Positions 1,716 to 50,061 of a DNA stretch of 64,000 bases are shown here, in pieces. Position numbers and translations under genes: made by a program. The stretch lies in the NCBI RefSeq assembly GCF_003018115.1, contig NZ_CP027457.1; one strand, given 5' to 3'. Source of the stretch: Escherichia coli. Lineage in GTDB: Bacteria > Pseudomonadota > Gammaproteobacteria > Enterobacterales > Enterobacteriaceae. The first letter of the stretch is position 1; every line of letters begins with the position of its first letter. A model generated the notes under the pieces. That model made no database searches. It worked only from the letters and a program-made list of their open reading frames with translations, and had not been told where the DNA came from.

Positions 1716-2181
1716 GGTTGAATAGCTCCTTGATACGAGAGCGCCGCTTATCGCGATCTCCCTTATCAGGTGTCACGTCTTCAACTTGCGACTGCTCTTT
1801 GAGGCCCAAATCACGGGCGATGATGTTAGCGTTGAGAAGGTCAGCGGCTGCGCCAGAGAATTTCTGGTCGTAGATGACCTGCTCTGCTCGCGTAACGACT
1901 TCAGATAAATCTTCTCGCAGGCGATATGTGCGCCATGTTTCAAGCGTCACATCAATGAACAGAGTGAGGCCGGTGATGGTCATCGCTCGCATCTTGGCGA
2001 TAGGCTCTTGCATCACTTCCCCCTGATACGAGAACGCCTTCATCTCCCATAGCGGGTTAGCTTCCACCCACTCGAAGTATTCACAACAAGCAGCCCACAG
2101 CGCCTCAGGCGATTCGAATTTAGGGTTTCGCCCATGACTACTGCGGGCCTCCCAAAATCGGTTGCCCTTTGGTGCTGCCAT
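1693..2181 (-). CDS. Terminase small subunit (P22 gp3-like, 162 aa)
   Basis: 162-aa ORF immediately upstream of and overlapping terL; same size and position as P22 gene 3. Confidence 0.7.
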
Positions 2182-2260
2182 ATTGATTATTTCCCTTCTG
2201 CTTGCTTATCCCATTCATCGCGGAATTTGGATGGGTTGTCGAAACCTTGAGTTGCCATGA

Positions 2261-2503
2261 TTATGCTCCGGTGGTGAACAGGTCTAACACTTCCTTCGAT
2301 TTACGTACCGCTTCGATAGTGCGGGTCGTGATATCTGAATTAGCGCCGCCTGACTGGAAGTGAATTTTGAATAGCTCAAGCTTCAGCTCGTCAGTGCCAA
2401 TGAACTGAAATGCTTCTTCTGCGGCTGCGTTCTGGTTCATGACCAGTTTGTAAATCTCTAACTGGAATTTCTGTTCTTCAGTCATGGGAATAATCTCTGC
2501 CAT
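2261..2503 (-). CDS. Hypothetical 80-aa phage protein (orf80-like, upstream of terminase)
   Basis: 80-aa ORF between rha and terS, as in P22-like genomes; no function recognised. Confidence 0.5.
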   Translation of the reverse strand: MAEIIPMTEEQKFQLEIYKLVMNQNAAAEEAFQFIGTDELKLELFKIHFQSGGANSDITTRTIEAVRKSKEVLDLFTTGA

Positions 2504-2712
2504 TGTTGGCTCCGTTTATCCGTTAAAAGGGATATCAGTTAAGTTATCCCGTGCAGGGTATAAGCTATTGTCGAGACCACTCATTGAATGGTCTCTCCAT
2601 CAGTCCGCCACCACAAAGAATCTTTTTTGCCATAAGGCAGGAGGTTCATCTTTCAGTGGCTGCCAGTGTTATTTCCCCACTTACTGGCTTGGGTTGTTTC
2701 GTGGTACTGCCG

Positions 2713-3255
2713 TTAATTGGTGAGTCCGGGGATTACGGTTTGCCCGTGCTGTTCAAGGCGTTCAATTCTCGCCAGTAGCTGAGGCTTCTTAATTTTTCCC
2801 CAGCGATTAAGCAGGCGGCCTGACATGCTGGCAACATCCTTCTCTTTCATGTACTCCAGCATTACGGCATTTCTCTCTTCTTCAAATTGACGATGACCAA
2901 CCTGAAGCATGGCGTACATCCAGTTGAATGCGTTGATGTAAGCAATTTTGATACGCATTGCTTCTTTTTTGGTGTAGGACATAACCAAAAGCATCAACCC
3001 ATCCTTACGTAGCCGATAGAATTTTTGCGGCTTACCATTCTGTAACTCATTGTTTTTATAGCAAAGCTCAAAGTTGAGCTTTGTATCAAACTCAGGAGGG
3101 CAAGCTTCTATGGTTCGCTCAATGTCACGGACTACGTTCTTCGGCAGCTTTCCAAATGCTTTTGCCACCATAAAAGAATCTGTAACCGGATCGTTGTTTG
3201 CTACAAAAATTAGGTCTCTGAAATCTATATCGTTAACAACGGTTGGGTAGTTCAT
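2713..3255 (-). CDS. rha: Rha-family phage regulatory protein
   Basis: 180-aa ORF with motifs typical of the Rha family (KDGLMLLVMSYTKKEAMRIKIAYINAFNWM); sits between lysis cassette and packaging genes. Confidence 0.6.
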   Translation of the reverse strand: MNYPTVVNDIDFRDLIFVANNDPVTDSFMVAKAFGKLPKNVVRDIERTIEACPPEFDTKLNFELCYKNNELQNGKPQKFYRLRKDGLMLLVMSYTKKEAMRIKIAYINAFNWMYAMLQVGHRQFEEERNAVMLEYMKEKDVASMSGRLLNRWGKIKKPQLLARIERLEQHGQTVIPGLTN

Positions 3256-3601
3256 TGCGTCTTTACCTTTTAGAAAGATGAGCCTGTTCGCACAGAAAAG
3301 CCGTCCCCGAGATGGTCGCCACCATATACGGCAATTCTCAGGCTCAGCTTTCTGAAAGACTCGGGATTGTTACGCGCTGCGATGCGCGGTTTACTGCAGA
3401 TGTAAAAAAGCCCCGCTACTGCGAGGCTAAATCCTGGTGTTTGTGATGACTGGCCCTTATCTCAACGCAGCCCCTTACCGCGCGCCAGATGCTCAATATC
3501 AAGCATCAGCAATGAGATGTTTAATCTGGATTCACTCCAGAAGTGATCACCACCCTGTCTACAGAGCCAGATGTGAAGGATGATGAGTAGAATTATCGCT
3601 A

Positions 3602-9149: not shown

Positions 9150-10526
9150 TCATACGTCAGCCCCTTGTGCATATCGTCTGCCACGCGCAGCAGGTGCATT
9201 TGATGCTGTGCAAATCTGTCTGGCTTCATCCTGGTCACATGCAACAAAGTGTCCGTTACAGAACCGCTGGTAAACCGTACCAAGCGAGCCAAAACGGTTT
9301 TTCGTCACAATGATTTCAGCAAATGGTGCGGCGCTACTGTTCTCGTCATATACCGCTTCCCGATAGAGCATGATGATTGAGTCTGCGTCCTGCTCAATGC
9401 TTCCTGAATCACGCAAATCTGCGTTTGTCGGGCGTTTGTTTGGTCGCTTCTCAACATCGCGCGAAAGCTGACTCAGGGAGATAACAGGCGTTTTCAGGTC
9501 TTTCGCCATCGCCTTCAGGCTTCCGGAGATGTGAGCAATTGCAAGGTCGTTGCGGTCTGCTTTCGGCTTCTCAATCAGGCCAAGATAATCCGCCATGATG
9601 AGTGACAGGTTTGGATTTTCCTGTTTGTGCCGTTCTGCGATTGAGCGTATTTCTTCGACCGATAAACGCGAGGCATCGACTACCCATACATCCAAATCTG
9701 CGAGCTGACTCATGCCGTTAGCAACACGCGCCCAGCCTTCGTCATCCATCGATGCAGGATTTCGCAGTACGCTAACCGACATCCTCCCGGCGTTGGCAAT
9801 GCTTCGCTCTGCAATCTGCAATGCGCTCATTTCCATTGAGAAAATCAATACCCCGCGCCGGACGTCAGAACCAGGAATAACGCGGCTTGCAACGCCTTCG
9901 GCAATCTTCAGCGCCAGTTCGGTTTTCCCCATACCAGGACGAGCGGCGATAATCACCAGGTCTTCCGCGTTCATCCCTCCGGTGATAGCGTCAAGTTCTT
10001 CGATTCCGGTCTTCAGGGTATCTGACTCTTCTCCGTTCCTCAGACGCCTGTCAAGCGTGTCAGTGTAGTCGGTGATGATTTCCCCTAACCGTACCGGTTT
10101 AACCTCGTCACGGGGCTTTCTGATGGCTGAAAGACGCTTTACAAGCTCATCCATCGCCTGACTAGATGCGTCGATGGTTCCGCTCTGAATTGGTTCACGC
10201 ATTTCGTCCATGATTTCCAGCACCAGACGGCGGTGATAGTTATCCGCGACCATTCCGGCATATCCCTTCAGGTTTGCGGCACTCGGGCAGTTTTTGCTGG
10301 TCATCAGGATTGACGTGAAATGCTCCTCTCCGCACGCCTCGGCAACCATCAGCGCGTCGATTAGGTTTCTGTTTCGCGCCTGCTTGCGGATAACCTCGAA
10401 GGCTTTCCGGTAGAGCGGAATTGAAAACGCTTCCGGCTCAAGCGTTGCCAGAACGTCACTGGCGGTTGGAGTTAATCCACCAATCAGCAGGCCACCGATA
10501 ACGCTCGCTTCGATATCCTGTCTCAT
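9150..10526 (-). CDS. Replicative DNA helicase, DnaB family (P22 gene 12-like; replaces lambda P)
   Basis: 458-aa ORF with Walker A (GMGKT) and DnaB-type motifs; start overlaps O stop. Confidence 0.85.
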
Positions 10527-11344
10527 GCAATCCCCCTGTCTGCAAACTTCCCTTCCCGAACTCCCGTTAACGAGTCTTCCCTCAGCAGGTAATCAAAATC
10601 AGCCGTCCAGCCCGTGTCGTTGTCTCCGAAGTAAAACGGCTTGGCCTGATGCACAAACGCCCTGACATACGCTCTGAAACCGTCCACATTTGGCGTTTTC
10701 AGTTGCGGGATGATTTTCTTCAGGCGGCGTTTGCGTTTCTCGTTGACCGCAACAGCGTGTGGCAGTCTGTCACCGACTTCGGTGTTGTAGGCGTTCAGGA
10801 AGGATTCGTAGTCGATTCGTTCTGCCTTGCGACGTTCAGGTTTAACCTGCCCATCGCCACCCCCGTTAGGGGGTAAGGGGGTATTTGTATTTATTGTCTT
10901 TTGTATATTGTCTTTTGTGTTTAGCTGACTTGGCTTATACCCATTAGCCGACTTGGCTAATGTTTTATTAGCTGTTTTAGCTAATGTTAAGCTGTCATGG
11001 CTAATCCACTGAGAAACCACCTTGTTCACTCCGATTTTCACGCCATCAGCAATGAGGAATTTACGCTCGATAAGCTGGCGCTTGGCAGCGCAAACATGAG
11101 TGTGATGAATACCTGTCATGGCTGCTATCTGCGTGTTTGTGAGTCGATCCATCGGCTTATTGAATCCGTATGTCTTGCGCATGATAGCGAGCATCACCTT
11201 CATCTGCCGGACGGTTAAATCAGCCATCAGCAGACTGTCGGTAATCTCGTTAGCAACGCGCATGAAACCATCTTCGGTATCTGCCACGCGATGCTCCACG
11301 ACCTCCAGTTGAGGCCTGTAATCAGCTAACTTAACGACGCCCAT
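10523..11344 (-). CDS. O: Replication initiator O-like protein (contains the origin iterons)
   Basis: 273-aa ORF with HTH N-terminal domain; iterons and AT-rich tract lie within the coding sequence as in lambda O / P22 gene 18. Confidence 0.75.
10880..11007. repeat. Phage replication origin: four ~19-bp iterons (TTAGCYGNYTTGGCTAAT-like) at about 10921, 10944, 10968 and 10987, plus adjacent AT-rich tract (10880-10920)
   Basis: Direct repeats TTAGCTGACTTGGCTTATA / TTAGCCGACTTGGCTAATG / TTAGCTGTTTTAGCTAATG / TTAAGCTGTCATGGCTAATCC read from the sequence. Confidence 0.7.
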
Positions 11345-11502
11345 GTTTCACTCCTGCTTTGGCTAGTCTGTAAACACCAACAAGGCGCTCTGCGAACGCC
11401 CTGTTATTTGCTGCGGCTACCACTAATCCCTCAGGTGAATCAGGGTGTCGAATCTCTTCTTTTTCCTGGTATTTCTTACGACGTTTTGTCATAATTACTC
11501 CT

Positions 11503-11566
11503 GTGGATTGATCCAGTCTTTCTACATCAGGCCTCGAAGAATTCGCCGTTCTTCGGGGCTTTTTCT
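11503..11566 (+). ncRNA. oop: Putative OOP-like antisense RNA overlapping the 3' end of cII
   Basis: Plus-strand hairpin CGAAGAA-TTCGCCG-TTCTTCG followed by a T-run (11535-11566) inside the cII 3' end; upstream GTGGATTGATCCAGTC resembles the lambda oop 5' end. Confidence 0.45.
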
Positions 11567-11805
11567 TTTGTCAGCATTCTGGCTACTTTCTTAGCCAGTT
11601 CCGCCAACTCCTCGTCTTCAACACCCCATTCAAGAACAGCCAGAAGCATTCCCATTTTTGGGATGAAGCTGTCTTTCCATCGCGAAATTTGCGATTCATT
11701 AATTCCTAACGCGTCGGCAACCTTTCGCTGGCCACGTACAGCAATTCGATTCAGGATGTTGCTTGTAATTGCATTCGCTTTCTTGCGAGTACTTGTAAGT
11801 TCCAT
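11527..11805 (-). CDS. cII: CII-like transcriptional activator
   Basis: From internal ATG at 11805: MELTSTRKKANAITSNILNRIAVRGQRKVADALGINESQISRWKDSFIPKMGMLLAVLEWGV, lambda CII-like. Confidence 0.75.
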   Translation of the reverse strand: MELTSTRKKANAITSNILNRIAVRGQRKVADALGINESQISRWKDSFIPKMGMLLAVLEWGVEDEELAELAKKVARMLTKEKAPKNGEFFEA

Positions 11806-11864
11806 ATGTAAGTATTTCCTTAACAAATAAGAAGTTATGCGCATCAACTTATGCGCGTTGTATT

Positions 11865-11907
11865 CCCGCATTTCGGCGGGAATGAGGACCATGACTGTTA
11901 AAGAGCG
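11865..11907 (-). promoter_or_regulatory. nutR (boxA-like CGCTCTTTAACA plus boxB hairpin CCCGCCGAAATGCGGG)
   Basis: Downstream of cro on the minus strand; boxB is identical to the one at nutL. Confidence 0.6.
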
Positions 11908-11913
11908 GTGTTA

Positions 11914-12114
11914 CTATTTGTTTTTCTTGTTGCTTGGGAAAGGACGAACTTCCTCTCCAATCACACTGCCATCAGGCTTTACCGTAACCATGATGTTACG
12001 GCCTGCCAGAATGGCCTTGCTGATAGCGCACTGGATTACACCAAAGTCACTGGCTGCTTTAGCCTGTCCATGGATTTTGGCGTAATCGGCAAGTGTCATT
12101 CGAATCATATGCAC
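11914..12114 (-). CDS. cro: Cro-like repressor
   Basis: 66-aa [67 protein letters not shown], lambda Cro-like, divergent from cI. Confidence 0.8.
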
Positions 12115-12139
12115 TCTCCGTTATTAACCATGAACAAAG

Positions 12140-12179
12140 AATACTACAGGTATTCAAAGCAATCAATACTCAGGGTATT
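12140..12179. promoter_or_regulatory. oR operators: two 15-bp palindromes AATAC-N5-GTATT (12140-12154, 12165-12179) in the cI-cro intergenic region (pR/pRM)
   Basis: AATACTACAGGTATT and AATACTCAGGGTATT read directly from the sequence. Confidence 0.65.
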
Positions 12180-12214
12180 TTTAGTTTAAGTACCTTAGCT
12201 ATTAGAATTAAGCT

Positions 12215-12931
12215 ATGGAAAATAAAAAATCACTGACGACAGAACAGCTCGAAGACGCTAAGCGGCTTAAGGCTTTGTATGAGTCAAAAAAGAAAGAATT
12301 GGGAATAACCCAATACTCAATCGCTGATGAACTGGGTATCACCCAAGGAGCGGTAGGGCATTATCTTAATGGCAGAAACGCGCTAAACGTTGAGGTCGCA
12401 TCTGGTTTTGCACGTTTGTTGCAAGTCTCAATTGCTGATTTTAGCCAGTCAATTGCTGCCAAGGTTGCAGAACAGGCAGAAAGCCTTAAGAGCGATGCCA
12501 ACGTAAGGTATGCAGGGGAATACAGAGCAGGAAAGAGGTATCCGGTGTTAAGCAGTATCCAGGCTGGCTCGTGGTGTGAAGCATGCGAACCATACACCAT
12601 TAAAGACATAGATGTTTGGCTTGAGTCTGACGCGCATATTCAAGGTAATGCGTTCTGGCTTAAAGTGGAAGGTGATTCAATGACGGCACCGGTTGGGTTA
12701 AGCATTCCAGAGGGAACATTCGTTCTTTTCGATACCGGAAGGGAGGCGATCAACGGCAGCTTGGTCATAGCAAAACTTTCTGACTCTAACGAAGCAACAT
12801 TCAAGAAGCTGATAATCGACGGCGGAAATAAATACCTCAAGGGACTTAATCCTGCATGGCCTCTCGTGCCAATCAATGGAAACTGCAAGATTATAGGCGT
12901 TGCAATTGAGACAAAACTAAGGCTGGTTTGA
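12215..12931 (+). CDS. cI: CI-type prophage repressor (HTH plus LexA/S24-like C-terminal domain)
   Basis: 238-aa ORF; N-terminus MENKKSLTTEQLEDAKRLKALYESKKKELGITQYSIADELGITQGAVG parallels lambda CI; C-terminus AFWLKVEGDSMTAP...FKKLI is the autocleavage domain. Confidence 0.85.
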   Translation: MENKKSLTTEQLEDAKRLKALYESKKKELGITQYSIADELGITQGAVGHYLNGRNALNVEVASGFARLLQVSIADFSQSIAAKVAEQAESLKSDANVRYAGEYRAGKRYPVLSSIQAGSWCEACEPYTIKDIDVWLESDAHIQGNAFWLKVEGDSMTAPVGLSIPEGTFVLFDTGREAINGSLVIAKLSDSNEATFKKLIIDGGNKYLKGLNPAWPLVPINGNCKIIGVAIETKLRLV

Positions 12932-38362: not shown

Positions 38363-39409
38363 ATGACGCAATTTAATCCCGTTGATCATCCACATCGCCG
38401 CTACAACCCGCTCACCGGGCAATGGATTCTGGTTTCACCGCACCGCGCTAAGCGCCCCTGGCAGGGGGCGCAGGAAACGCCAGCCAAACAGGTGTTACCT
38501 GCGCACGATCCAGATTGCTTCCTCTGCGCAGGTAATGTGCGGGTGACAGGCGATAAAAACCCCGATTACACCGGGACTTACGTTTTCACTAATGACTTTG
38601 CGGCCTTGATGTCTGACACGCCAGATGCGCCAGAAAGTCACGATCCTTTGATGCGTTGCCAGAGCGCGCGCGGCACCAGCCGGGTGATCTGCTTTTCACC
38701 GGATCACAGTAAAACGCTGCCAGAGCTCAGCGTTGCAGCATTGACGGAAATCGTCAAAACCTGGCAGGAGCAAACCGCAGAACTGGGGAAAACGTACCCA
38801 TGGGTGCAGGTTTTTGAAAACAAAGGCGCTGCGATGGGCTGCTCTAACCCGCATCCGCACGGTCAGATTTGGGCAAATAGCTTCCTGCCTAACGAAGCTG
38901 AGCGCGAAGACCGCCTGCAAAAAGAATATTTTGCCGAACAGAAATCACCAATGCTGGTGGATTATGTTCAGCGCGAGCTGGCAGACGGTAGCCGTACCGT
39001 TGTCGAAACCGAACACTGGTTAGCCGTCGTGCCTTACTGGGCTGCCTGGCCGTTCGAAACGCTACTGCTGCCCAAAGCCCACGTTTTGCGGATCACCGAT
39101 TTGACCGACGCCCAGCGCAGCGATTTGGCGCTGGCGTTGAAAAAGCTGACCAGTCGTTATGACAACCTCTTCCAGTGCTCCTTCCCCTACTCTATGGGCT
39201 GGCACGGCGCACCATTTAATGGCGAAGAGAATCAACACTGGCAGCTGCACGCGCACTTTTATCCGCCTCTGCTGCGCTCCGCCACCGTACGTAAATTTAT
39301 GGTTGGTTATGAAATGCTGGCAGAGACCCAGCGAGACCTGACCGCAGAACAGGCAGCAGAGCGTTTGCGCGCAGTCAGCGATATCCATTTTCGCGAATCC
39401 GGAGTGTAA
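38363..39409 (+). CDS. galT: Galactose-1-phosphate uridylyltransferase
   Basis: 348-aa ORF with the HPHGQ active-site motif. Confidence 0.95.
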
Positions 39410-47588: not shown

Positions 47589-47717
47589 ACATTGGTGGGT
47601 CGTGCAGGATGACTCGCTTCGCTCGCCCTTCGGGCCGTCGCCGCGAGCGGCTCCGTTGTTTCGCTGCGCTCAACTCAAACCTGCTGCAGGTTCGAATCTT
47701 TGAGTATCGCAGATAGC

Positions 47718-47744
47718 AAAAAAGCGCCTTTAGGGCGCTTTTTT
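47718..47744 (-). terminator. Intrinsic terminator following lysQ (end of the tRNA operon)
   Basis: Minus strand AAAAAAGCGCCCTAAAGGCGCTTTTTT hairpin immediately 3' of the last tRNA. Confidence 0.7.
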
Positions 47745-47748
47745 ACAT

Positions 47749-47824
47749 TGGTGGGTCGTGCAGGATTCGAACCTGCGACCAATTGATTAAAAGTCAACTG
47801 CTCTACCAACTGAGCTAACGACCC
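47749..47824 (-). tRNA. lysQ: tRNA-Lys (UUU)
   Basis: 76-nt sequence (minus strand GGGTCGTTAGCTCAGTTGGTAGAGCAGTTGACTTTTAATCAATTGGTCGCAGGTTCGAATCCTGCACGACCCACCA). Confidence 0.9.
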
Positions 47825-47857
47825 CTTGCGGGATTATGATGCTTTAATCATTCAGGA

Positions 47858-47933
47858 TGGTGGGTCGTGCAGGATTCGAACCTGCGACCAATTGATTAAA
47901 AGTCAACTGCTCTACCAACTGAGCTAACGACCC
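47858..47933 (-). tRNA. lysZ: tRNA-Lys (UUU)
   Basis: Identical 76-nt tRNA-Lys sequence. Confidence 0.9.
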
Positions 47934-48079
47934 ATACGGGTGTTACCTGAAAGATTTTTACTCGGGGCCAATCTTTAAGATTGGTGGGTCGTGCAGGATG
48001 ACTCGCTTCGCTCGCCCTTCGGGCCGTTGCTGGCGCAACGTTATCCTTCACGCTTAACATCTGAGTTTGATGTTAAAAC

Positions 48080-48155
48080 TGGTGGGTCGTGCAGGATTCG
48101 AACCTGCGACCAATTGATTAAAAGTCAACTGCTCTACCAACTGAGCTAACGACCC
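48080..48155 (-). tRNA. lysY: tRNA-Lys (UUU)
   Basis: Identical 76-nt tRNA-Lys sequence. Confidence 0.9.
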
Positions 48156-48158
48156 GAG

Positions 48159-48234
48159 TGGTGGGTGATGACGGGATCGAACCGCCGACCCCCTCCTTGT
48201 AAGGGAGGTGCTCTCCCAGCTGAGCTAATCACCC
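48159..48234 (-). tRNA. valZ: tRNA-Val (UAC)
   Basis: 76-nt sequence (minus strand GGGTGATTAGCTCAGCTGGGAGAGCACCTCCCTTACAAGGAGGGGGTCGGCGGTTCGATCCCGTCATCACCCACCA). Confidence 0.9.
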
Positions 48235-48285
48235 GATACTGCGCTGGATACTACAAACTACTTCCACCGAACCCACCGTAATTAG

Positions 48286-48361
48286 TGGTGGGTCGTGCAG
48301 GATTCGAACCTGCGACCAATTGATTAAAAGTCAACTGCTCTACCAACTGAGCTAACGACCC
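48286..48361 (-). tRNA. lysW: tRNA-Lys (UUU)
   Basis: Identical 76-nt tRNA-Lys sequence. Confidence 0.9.
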
Positions 48362-48363
48362 GG

Positions 48364-48439
48364 TGGTGGGTGATGACGGGATCGAACCGCCGACCCCCTC
48401 CTTGTAAGGGAGGTGCTCTCCCAGCTGAGCTAATCACCC
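48364..48439 (-). tRNA. valT: tRNA-Val (UAC)
   Basis: Identical 76-nt tRNA-Val sequence. Confidence 0.9.
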
Positions 48440-48474
48440 GATACTACGCTGGATACTACAACTAACTAGGTTAG

Positions 48475-48550
48475 TGGTGGGTCGTGCAGGATTCGAACCT
48501 GCGACCAATTGATTAAAAGTCAACTGCTCTACCAACTGAGCTAACGACCC
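48475..48550 (-). tRNA. lysT: tRNA-Lys (UUU), first gene of the operon
   Basis: Identical 76-nt tRNA-Lys sequence. Confidence 0.9.
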
Positions 48551-48714
48551 ACTTTTTCGTTGCTTTCGGTTTGTTTGATATCCCGTGGCAACGGCGGCAT
48601 ATATTACTGATTTCAGACTTGAGCGCAACAAAAATTTCGATGTAGATCACTCAACTGCTTATGATTCGCACGACACGACCAGAAATAATGCGACTTCTGG
48701 TCGTGTGTTATGCA

Positions 48715-49506
48715 TTACATCGCGTTCAGACGTTTTTGTGCCTGTTTAGCGCCATCAGTACCAGGGTATTTACTGATAACCTGCTGGTATACGGCTTTCG
48801 CTTTTGCGGTGTCACCTTTGTCCTGCATGATGACGCCGACTTTAAACATCGCATCTGCAGCCTTTGGTGACTTCGGATAGTTTTTCACTACCGAAGCAAA
48901 ATAGTACGCCGCATCATCTTTTTTACCCTTGTTGTAGTTTAACTGACCCAGCCAATAATTGGCGTTTGGCAGGTAAGTTGAATCAGGGTAATTTTTGATG
49001 AAATTCTGAAATGCCACCATTGCGTCATCCTGGCGGGATTTATCCTGCACCAGCGCAATAGCTGCATTGTAATCCGTGTTTGCATCACCGCTTTTCACCG
49101 GCGCGCCAGCATTCGCAGTACCAGCATCAGCTGTCGGCGTCGTTGATGCCGCCGCACCGCTTTGATCACCGCTGGTTGATTGCGCCGCTGCACCACCGCT
49201 GCTGAGGCTGTCGATCTGCAACAGGATCTGCTTTTGCCGCTCCACGACCTGATTCAGTTGATACTGATTTTCCTGAATCTGACCACGCAGGGAATCAATA
49301 TCGGATTGATTATCAGAGAGTTGTTGCTGGAGTTGGGTTAAAAGCTGGCTGTGAGCATTAGAAATACGCTCAAGTTGAGTGACGCGGTCTTCGACCGAGC
49401 CTGAGCCGACACTACTGATTGGTGCCTGAGCAAAAGCGGCCCAGGGGGCCGCTATACCAACCAGTAACGACAGACTCAATAGTTGATGTCTGAAGTTACT
49501 GCTCAT
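48715..49506 (-). CDS. cpoB: Cell-division coordinator CpoB (YbgF), TPR protein
   Basis: 263-aa ORF with signal peptide, coiled coil and TPR repeats; last gene of tol-pal. Confidence 0.9.
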   Translation of the reverse strand: MSSNFRHQLLSLSLLVGIAAPWAAFAQAPISSVGSGSVEDRVTQLERISNAHSQLLTQLQQQLSDNQSDIDSLRGQIQENQYQLNQVVERQKQILLQIDSLSSGGAAAQSTSGDQSGAAASTTPTADAGTANAGAPVKSGDANTDYNAAIALVQDKSRQDDAMVAFQNFIKNYPDSTYLPNANYWLGQLNYNKGKKDDAAYYFASVVKNYPKSPKAADAMFKVGVIMQDKGDTAKAKAVYQQVISKYPGTDGAKQAQKRLNAM

Positions 49507-49515
49507 GCAATTCTC

Positions 49516-50061
<546 letters not shown>

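Follow-up and report, generated by a model that had tools for sequence, protein, structure and literature searches.

The window (the whole stretch of DNA analyzed, 64 kb in length) is from the chromosome of E. coli and includes a lambdoid prophage, which is located next to ybhC/ybhJ. The replication module of the prophage lies on the minus strand, where an operon comprising cro, cII, a 53-aa ORF (orf53) and an O-like initiator gene is read divergently from cI. The helicase gene is located immediately downstream of O, and its start overlaps the O stop. The genes and encoded domains were assigned as follows.

9150..10526, minus strand, gene for a phage DnaB-family replicative helicase, 458 aa (Pfam DnaB_C, E 9.5e-78, and a DnaB N-domain)
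10523..11344, minus strand, O-like replication initiator gene, 273 aa (ORF and Pfam Phage_rep_O)
10526..10867, minus strand, C-terminal domain of the initiator, approximately aa 160-273 (identity to ST415_1NRH and Stx2_481)
11006..11290, minus strand, predicted winged-helix DNA-binding N-domain, aa 19-113 (Pfam and AlphaFold2 model)
11066..11107, minus strand, codons of the predicted recognition helix, aa 80-93 (model helix 81-93; co-varies with iteron type)
11331..12114, minus strand, early-right operon upstream of O and reading into O (Pfam; gene order as in HK97)
11331-11492, minus strand, 53-aa ORF (ORF list)
11527-11892, minus strand, cII (Pfam Phage_CII)
11914-12114, minus strand, cro (Pfam Cro)

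The ORFs of O, the helicase, cro, cII and cI are all intact. Residues 19-113 of the initiator were identified as Phage_rep_O (PF04492) with an E-value of 4.1e-33 and a score of 114 bits (versus a cutoff of 28.7). In the AlphaFold2 model of aa 1-160, a helix (70-77), a turn, a second helix (81-93) and a beta-hairpin wing (97-106) together form a winged helix, with block-mean pLDDT values of 81-93 over aa 31-110. The segment encoded by the origin proposed below (aa 114-155) consists of blocks of mean pLDDT 49-63, consistent with a linker. A PDB sequence search with the initiator returned no solved relative; the nearest solved folds in Foldseek were winged helices of the MarR, CRP and IclR types, with weak E-values and low TM scores for a query that included disordered tails. 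A sigma-70 consensus scan of positions 10400-12300 gave no promoter match. When the entire window was scanned against Rfam at the gathering threshold, nothing was obtained in the prophage replication region, the matches being confined to chromosomal tRNAs, RtT and the CpoB thermometer.

Over its whole length, the O-like gene is 99.0% identical in DNA sequence to that of HK97 and 99.1% to that of mEp213, and genes of approximately 99% identity occur in HK544, Nil2, many Stx phages (among them 1717/2851) and Salmonella ST104. Its N-domain is identical to that of the HK97 locus L018 at 113 of 113 residues. In the HK97 record, gp54 is described as "O, similar to P22 gp18" and the next gene as "P, similar to DnaB", and no rep_origin feature is annotated in this GenBank record. 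"HK97" appears as a prototype replication-specificity type in PMC2629481 (Table 1), and the window initiator falls into this origin-specificity class, for which an aa identity of 92% or more to the prototype is the criterion used there. By sequence, the gene is essentially the same element as HK97 gene O (gp54).

Within the O-like gene, four repeats of 18-19 bp were detected at 10921-11005 by a repeat finder and by direct reading, in agreement with the original prediction of four iterons of about 19 bp in an initiator gene; the consensus and the coordinates then given for the origin (10880-11007) also proved accurate. Each repeat is an imperfect palindrome with the core TTAGC-N7-GCTAA, i.e., two 5-bp arms (TTAGC/GCTAA) separated by 7 bp. 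The four copies, numbered in gene orientation, are listed with their plus-strand readings.

10988..11005, minus strand, iteron 1, ATTAGCCATGACAGCTTA, frame 0, right arm degenerate; plus-strand copy (10988-11005) TAAGCTGTCATGGCTAAT
10968..10985, minus strand, iteron 2, ATTAGCTAAAACAGCTAA, frame 2; plus-strand copy (10968-10985) TTAGCTGTTTTAGCTAAT
10944..10961, minus strand, iteron 3, ATTAGCCAAGTCGGCTAA, frame 2, the best palindrome among the four; plus-strand copy (10944-10961) TTAGCCGACTTGGCTAAT
10921..10938, minus strand, iteron 4, ATAAGCCAAGTCAGCTAA, frame 1, left arm degenerate, abutting the AT-rich tract; plus-strand copy (10921-10938) TTAGCTGACTTGGCTTAT

The array spans gene nt 340-424, with copies starting at 340/360/384/407, and corresponds to aa 114-142. 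The start-to-start spacing is 23, 24 and 20 bp on the plus strand, or 20/24/23 in gene orientation. The iterons had been described as lying 19-24 bp apart, which holds for this start-to-start distance but not for the gaps between adjacent 18-mers, which are only 2-6 bp. When the consensus pattern TTAGCYGNNNTRGCTAAT was scanned on both strands of the 64-kb window with up to two mismatches, six matches were obtained, every one of them within 10921-11005. These represent the four sites, two of which are palindromic enough to match on the other strand as well. The chance expectation from shuffled sequence is 0.35 matches, and none of 100 shuffles reached six. Three further candidates were set aside: a terminator-like match at 10942-10962 is accounted for by iteron 3 and the T's after it, while an additional "copy" with five mismatches at gene nt 222 and an 11-nt repeat at 10992/11113 were both within the range of the shuffled controls and were attributed to chance.

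Read along the gene, iteron 4 is immediately followed by an AT-rich tract (gene nt 425-463, aa 142-155), so that the order along the gene is N-domain, iterons and AT tract, as in lambda. The GC content is 0.25 at 10880-10919 versus approximately 0.5 in the flanks, in accordance with the adjacent AT-rich tract that had been predicted, and strand asymmetry is strong. Three features were distinguished in this part of the gene.

10911..10920, minus strand, junction motif ACACAAAAGA at the boundary of the iterons and the AT tract (comparison of 15 genes)
10882..10920, minus strand, AT-rich tract ACACAAAAGACAATATACAAAAGACAATAAATACAAATA, A-rich on the sense strand, presumed unwinding element (GC content and strand skew)
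10860..10881, minus strand, CCCCCTTACCCCCTAACGGGGG element, a C5/G5 inverted repeat to the right of the AT tract, role uncertain

The AT tract contains two copies of the direct repeat TTGTCTTTTGT with a 14-bp period. The CCCCCTTACCCCCTAACGGGGG element encodes a Pro/Gly hinge (PLPPNGGG), and related C-run/G-run elements are present in P22, phiES15, phiEt88 and Stx2_481 but not in lambda. A weak inverted repeat (79%) was also observed at 10829-10857.

The organization of the region was further analyzed by comparing the window gene with 14 O-like genes (25-99% identity), each of which was subjected to an unsupervised scan with 18-mer seeds. As a positive control, the scan recovered lambda ITN1-4 (ATCCCTCAAAACGAGGGA) at gene nt 349/369/393/416. 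Lambda O starts at 38686, placing gene nt 349 at lambda 39034, which agrees with the published statement that base 39,033 sits "one base left of ITN1" (PMC3349717). The six iterons of the 933W-type phages, described in PMC7466680, were also recovered. In 13 of the 14 genes, three to six palindromic repeats were found at the same gene position; the remaining one, Stx2_481, carries direct repeats instead. The 20/24/23 spacing is common to the window, lambda, P22, ST415_1NRH, YenM and S.Kent. Among the 15 O-type genes, 13 have ACACAAAAGA directly after the last iteron, succeeded by the A-rich tract; the motif is shared by lambda, P22, the 933W-type phages, mEp043, phiEt88, KO-TP1, IME1369 and others, and is absent from phi80 and Stx2_481.

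In lambda and the window alike, the site occupies the central, linker-encoding part of a Phage_rep_O gene and contains four dyad-symmetric iterons of about 18 bp at 20/24/23 spacing (nt 349-433 in lambda, nt 340-424 in the window), with an A-rich tract starting with ACACAAAAGA directly after them. The iterons themselves differ, being ATCCCTC...GAGGGA in lambda and TTAGCC...GGCTAA in the window, as the original prediction had pointed out. The recognition helix is KLPVKRCN in lambda versus GIHHTHVC in the window, and to the right of the AT tract lambda has the palindrome TCAGAGAATTCTGGCGAATCCTCTGA in place of the C5/G5 element. Moreover, the C-domains are unrelated, and the partner is lambda P in the one case and a phage DnaB-type helicase in the other.

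Gene 18 of P22 carries four repeats unlike those of lambda, and initiators of this kind differ according to origin specificity (PMC8022706). The P22 helicase gp12 is of the DnaB type (cited in PMC8022706). Both systems thus pair the initiator (gene 18 in P22) with a phage DnaB-type helicase (gene 12), and both have four repeats at 20/24/23. They share an identical AT tract and C5/G5 element (approximately 60 nt), and identity over gene nt 421-510 is 93-97%. Alignment with the lambda and P22 origins, which had been suggested as a check, revealed a common spacing and different iteron sequences. The P22 iterons are TTTACC-N-GGTAAA and its helix is GMAPTKCS, both unlike those of the window gene, and only 37 of 95 N-domain residues and 72 of 117 C-domain residues are identical. 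On account of these differences, P22 is predicted to represent a separate specificity class.

The origins of the Stx phages 933W and P27 share with the window an in-gene iteron array and an AT tract, but contain six copies, with lambda-type iterons and N-domain and a lambda P-type partner. Plasmid iteron origins (RepA/RepE/pi) are similar in having a winged-helix initiator, clustered repeats and an adjacent AT-rich unwinding element. They differ in that the repeats are direct, typically bound by monomers, located outside the rep gene and usually accompanied by DnaA boxes. A Rep_3/RepA-type assignment does not fit the window, where Phage_rep_O is the only Pfam match to the initiator, the sites are palindromic and lie in the gene, and no DnaA-box-like site (up to one mismatch) is present at 10400-11500. 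The sequence-level features by which an ori-lambda-like origin in an O-like gene, as originally predicted, could be examined (Phage_rep_O, iterons, spacing and AT tract) are all present, and the repeats are almost certainly, judging from the sequence, the replication origin of the lambda-like prophage, situated inside its initiator gene.

Repeats within a coding region might be a by-product of the protein, i.e., a repeated linker peptide (LAKTAN/LAKSAN) whose DNA has no function as DNA. Iterons 2 and 3 indeed encode the similar peptides TLAKTAN and TLAKSAN, and the model shows this stretch as a linker of low confidence. However, iterons 1 and 4 encode the unrelated ISHDSLT and YKPSQLN, and the four copies occupy three reading frames (0, 2, 2 and 1), and are therefore not a peptide repeat. 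The palindromic form is likewise one that a peptide repeat would not require. The conservation of synonymous sites is equally at odds with such an explanation. For this analysis, the best 80 of about 576 IMG/VR relatives were added, with N-domains ranging from 100% down to 50% identity, and identities were calculated as pairwise means over a set of 20 non-redundant loci with an N-domain aa identity of 72%. Among the 51 distinct loci that share the helix type of the window, 49 could be aligned gaplessly, with a common register and reading frame. The displayed HK97-class loci all have the 20/24/23 spacing, with the exception of L063 (three detected copies, spacing 20/47).

Mean pairwise identity was as follows (20 loci).

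Half-sites, all positions: 0.956
Iteron centers and inter-iteron spacers: 0.645 (versus half-sites, p = 3.5e-9)
Third-codon positions in half-sites: 1.000 (n = 12)
Third-codon positions in the N-domain: 0.456 (versus 1.000, p = 1.4e-8)

The sequence register was set by the anchor ACACAAAAG, and the 100% conservation of this segment in the identity table is consequently by construction; every HHTH(V/I)C-class locus listed carries it. Since the loci share descent, the p-values overstate independence, and only about 9-10 class switches are independent. The half-sites are under purifying selection at the DNA level. With third positions 100% conserved in the half-sites versus 46% in the N-domain, the frame and synonymous-site analysis effectively refutes the coding by-product, which can be given practically no credence. 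The original prediction had been staked on conservation of the iterons in related phage O genes, and this was observed, with half-sites 95.6% identical in 20 relatives whose N-domains are 72% identical.

The relationship between the iterons and the initiator was analyzed by two independent scans, one based on repeats and the other on palindromes, from which helix and iteron classes were derived. The first residues of helix 3 (aa 78-85) partition the O family in step with iteron type. Of 62 distinct loci whose helix is of the HHTH type, every one carries the core TTAGC-N7-GCTAA, as opposed to none of the 18 distinct loci with other helices. The other helix types each have a palindrome of their own, giving about ten classes over some 80 distinct loci, as listed below (helix; palindrome; loci).

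GIHHTH(V/I)C, G/AKHHTHCS and similar; TTAGC-N7-GCTAA; 62/62 distinct loci
GMAPTKCS; TTTAC-N7-GTAAA; P22
GILPHKCS; TTACC-N7-GGTAA; Turner, KO-TP1
KLPVKRCN; TCCCT-N7-AGGGA; lambda, 933W-type, S.Kent
GLSRQNVN; GTCTC-N7-GAGAC; IME1369, L095
RLPRQKVN; GTCAC-N7-GTGAC; mEp043
RISRSKAN; GTTAC-N7-GTAAC; phiEt88
GLPETRVC; TTCCC-N7-GGGAA; L079
GLSDTHVS; TTCCCG...CGGGAA; phi80

One locus, L085 (helix GMPRTRCS), showed no clear array in these scans.

Natural hybrids provide a second line of evidence. ST415_1NRH carries the N-domain and the iterons of P22 together with an HK97 C-domain (118 of 122 residues identical) and a DnaB helicase, and its joint lies at the junction of iteron 4 and the AT tract, i.e., at ACACAAAAGA. 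In S.Kent, the lambda N-domain and lambda iterons are joined to an mEp043 C-domain, followed by an mEp043-type toprim protein. Stx2_481 has a distant Phage_rep_O N-domain (Pfam) and different direct repeats, together with an HK97 C-domain (121 of 121) and the same helicase. A DnaB-like helicase thus accompanies the HK97 C-domain in the window as well as in ST415_1NRH and Stx2_481; the mEp043 C-domain is paired with a toprim protein both in mEp043 itself and in S.Kent, and the lambda C-domain with P. It follows from the make-up of these hybrids that iterons and N-domain move together, as do the C-domain and the helicase or loader. Initiator-origin co-specificity, which the original prediction had deduced from the divergence of the iterons from lambda, is supported by the helix/iteron co-variation over about 80 distinct loci and by these domain-swap hybrids, both of which are patterns in sequence.

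The same observations bear on the possibility that the palindromes are sites for some other protein, be it a host factor or a further phage regulator, and not for the initiator in whose gene they lie. Palindromes of 17 bp whose arms measure 5 bp are of a generic type for dimer binding. The iteron type nevertheless changes with the helix of the O N-domain in about ten classes, the iterons in the hybrids remain with the N-domain and not with the flanking genes or the C-domain, and 10400-11500 is devoid of DnaA-box-like sequence. Binding by another protein is accordingly considered extremely improbable.

Taken with the co-variation, the best explanation, and a very probable one, is a theta-replication origin that belongs to a lambdoid prophage of the HK97 type and lies within the prophage's own initiator gene. 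At this origin, O-like dimers would occupy the iterons, the AT tract would open and the phage DnaB-type helicase would be recruited. The anatomy of the region, the DNA-level purifying selection on the half-sites, the co-variation of iterons and helix and the modular exchange in hybrids are demonstrated directly, while binding by O, opening of the DNA, loading of the helicase and the involvement of transcription are inferred from lambda and P22. In lambda, O binds its four iterons (PMC8022706), its N-terminal 162 aa bind the origin (PMC2629481), and binding of O proteins to iterons has been documented by EMSA and footprints for lambda, P27 and 933W (PMC7466680). By analogy, dimers of the O-like protein would bind each of the four iterons via the recognition helix (HHTHVC...) of the N-domain, and the bound array, with sites about two helical turns apart, would form an O-some-like complex that destabilizes the adjoining A-rich tract of 25% GC. 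The C-domain would then bring in the phage's own DnaB-type helicase, encoded by the downstream gene, in place of lambda P and host DnaB. Rightward transcription from pR via cro-cII-O would cross the origin, although transcriptional activation of the origin is pure analogy. Iterons 1 and 4 each have one degenerate arm, which counts against such an origin, as do the missing rep_origin feature in the HK97 record and the negative sigma-70 scan.

Sites bound by the O-like protein might instead serve mainly in autoregulation, copy control or incompatibility (by titration, handcuffing or a transcriptional roadblock), with initiation taking place elsewhere in the prophage. Plasmid iterons are known for such roles, and ectopic copies of ori-lambda inhibit lambda (PMC3349717; title of PMC4488673). 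Here, however, the array abuts a conserved AT-rich tract bearing the junction motif of the experimentally defined ori-lambda, the minimal unwinding unit of which consists of two iterons and the AT tract (PMC7466680), and the whole arrangement is conserved with lambda, including the spacing. A primarily regulatory function is therefore judged very unlikely.

The locus might also be an origin by descent that is silent here, in a cryptic or defective prophage whose module never fires. No E. coli genome covers more than approximately 71% of window positions 1-25000 in one place, which indicates mosaicism and counts in favor of this possibility. Conversely, O, the helicase, cro, cII and cI are intact and 99% identical to those of the viable phages HK97, HK544 and mEp213, and the four iterons are identical to those of HK544 (L019). 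Relative to HK97, iteron 1 differs by a single center base (CATGAC in the window versus CAGGAC). A silent module is thus regarded as unlikely.

The finding is correct but ordinary, in that the architecture is that of the textbook and the locus another copy of an already known replicon. When 5,426 complete E. coli genomes were examined, 440 contained the 161-bp origin segment, and a prophage replication module that is so common (about 8% of these genomes and many Stx phages) matters little alone. The sequences of the HK97-type iterons may nevertheless be under-documented. A full-text search for the iteron strings revealed no paper that prints them, the HK97 genome paper (PMID 10860721) being outside that search, and the literature search gave no direct report of binding or origin activity for the HK97-type sequence. 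The coordinates given here could be used to annotate the rep_origin that is missing from HK97-type records.

At the level of the family, a broader scheme can be put forward tentatively, as possible but somewhat short of probable. The O-type origins examined all use 5-bp arms, usually 7 bp apart, and the start of helix 3 (aa 78-85) would predict the arm: HHTH would specify TTAGC, P.KCS TTTAC or TTACC, PVKRCN TCCCT, SRQNVN GTCTC, PRQKVN GTCAC and SRSKAN GTTAC. The ACACAAAAGA motif may serve as a crossover for exchanging a cassette of N-domain and iterons independently of the C-domain and helicase. If so, sequence could reveal origin specificity and, with it, the replicon compatibility of prophages residing in one cell. 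The table of helices and iterons provides a means of predicting classes of origin specificity, and with them possible replication interference between co-resident lambdoid prophages. DNA recognition by winged helices could also be studied on the specificity switches that occur naturally in the O family.

Defenses of the OLD/Lamassu type have been proposed to sense hairpin structure at ori-lambda (bioRxiv 10.64898/2026.07.10.737580), in a preprint that contains nothing on the HK97 origin. As single-stranded DNA, the iteron array of the window is strongly hairpin-prone (fold z = -5.2), as palindromes would be expected to be, and could be a structure sensed by such defenses.

Nucleotides 421-510 of the O-like initiator gene, comprising the AT tract and the C5/G5 element (window 10860-10920), share 93-97% identity with P22, and on either side of this island the identity between the window and P22 drops to about 55%. 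In the locus of ST415_1NRH the crossover occurs at the ACACAAAAGA junction. Taken together, the P22-like island and this crossover suggest, at the level of sequence comparison, that the conserved ACACAAAAGA junction may act as a recombination joint for the exchange of specificity cassettes.

On its right-hand side, the AT tract is flanked by one of two alternative elements (10860-10881 in the window, with corresponding positions in P22, Stx2_481 and the compared O-like loci L008, L010 and L015). The HK97, P22, phiES15, phiEt88 and Stx2_481 types carry a C-run/G-run inverted repeat, which codes for a Pro/Gly hinge, while lambda, 933W-type phages, Turner and phi80 carry the TCAGAGAATTCTGGCGAATCCTCTGA palindrome. 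Within the compared panel, all members with this palindrome have a lambda-type C-terminus.

The Stx2a phage Stx2_481 contains a natural hybrid initiator (positions 943-1890 of its locus), in which an N-domain that is a distant member of Phage_rep_O (Pfam, E 1e-14) is joined to an HK97-type C-domain that is identical to that of the window (121/121). The repeats in this initiator gene are direct rather than palindromic, namely four copies of CCGCACATGA(A/T)GCCGCAC. The DnaB-like helicase located 3' of the gene (~1887-3387) matches the window helicase over ~205 aa. Just past the Walker A motif (GMGK), this helicase is then broken by an insert that resembles an intein and bears Hint-like and LAGLIDADG-like motifs.

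The O-like loci L069-L076 and L086-L087 form a sub-class with the recognition helix G/AKHHTHCS. Their iterons retain the TTAGC/GCTAA arms, with altered inner positions (TTAGC(T/G/A)...TGCTAA), and the ACACAAAAG junction motif is lacking. For an additional O-like gene, L085, with the helix GMPRTRCS, neither the repeat-based nor the palindrome-based scan revealed a convincing iteron array 3' of the N-domain.

Upstream of O, the following feature was identified:

11331-11492, minus strand: 53-aa ORF, whose 3' end overlaps the O start

This ORF, which had no match in a Pfam search, is the counterpart of HK97 gp53 and by position resembles P22 orf48. At its 5' end (11485-11517, minus strand) lies a sequence with no mismatches to the 33-bp pO/oop 5' sequence ACTGGATCAATCCACAGGAGTAATTATGACAAA, which is reported to be conserved among lambdoid phages (PMC3349717). 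On the plus strand, a terminator-like hairpin with a T-run (11529-11571) lies antisense to cII, at the 3' end of that gene. Judging from these elements, positions 11485-11571 likely represent an oop-like antisense RNA unit.

Elsewhere in the window, the region 47593-49615 is chromosomal and lies outside the prophage. It includes the following chromosomal features:

47752-48550, minus strand: seven-gene tRNA cluster
within 47593-49615: RtT RNA, two matches
49477-49615, minus strand: CpoB/ybgF thermometer
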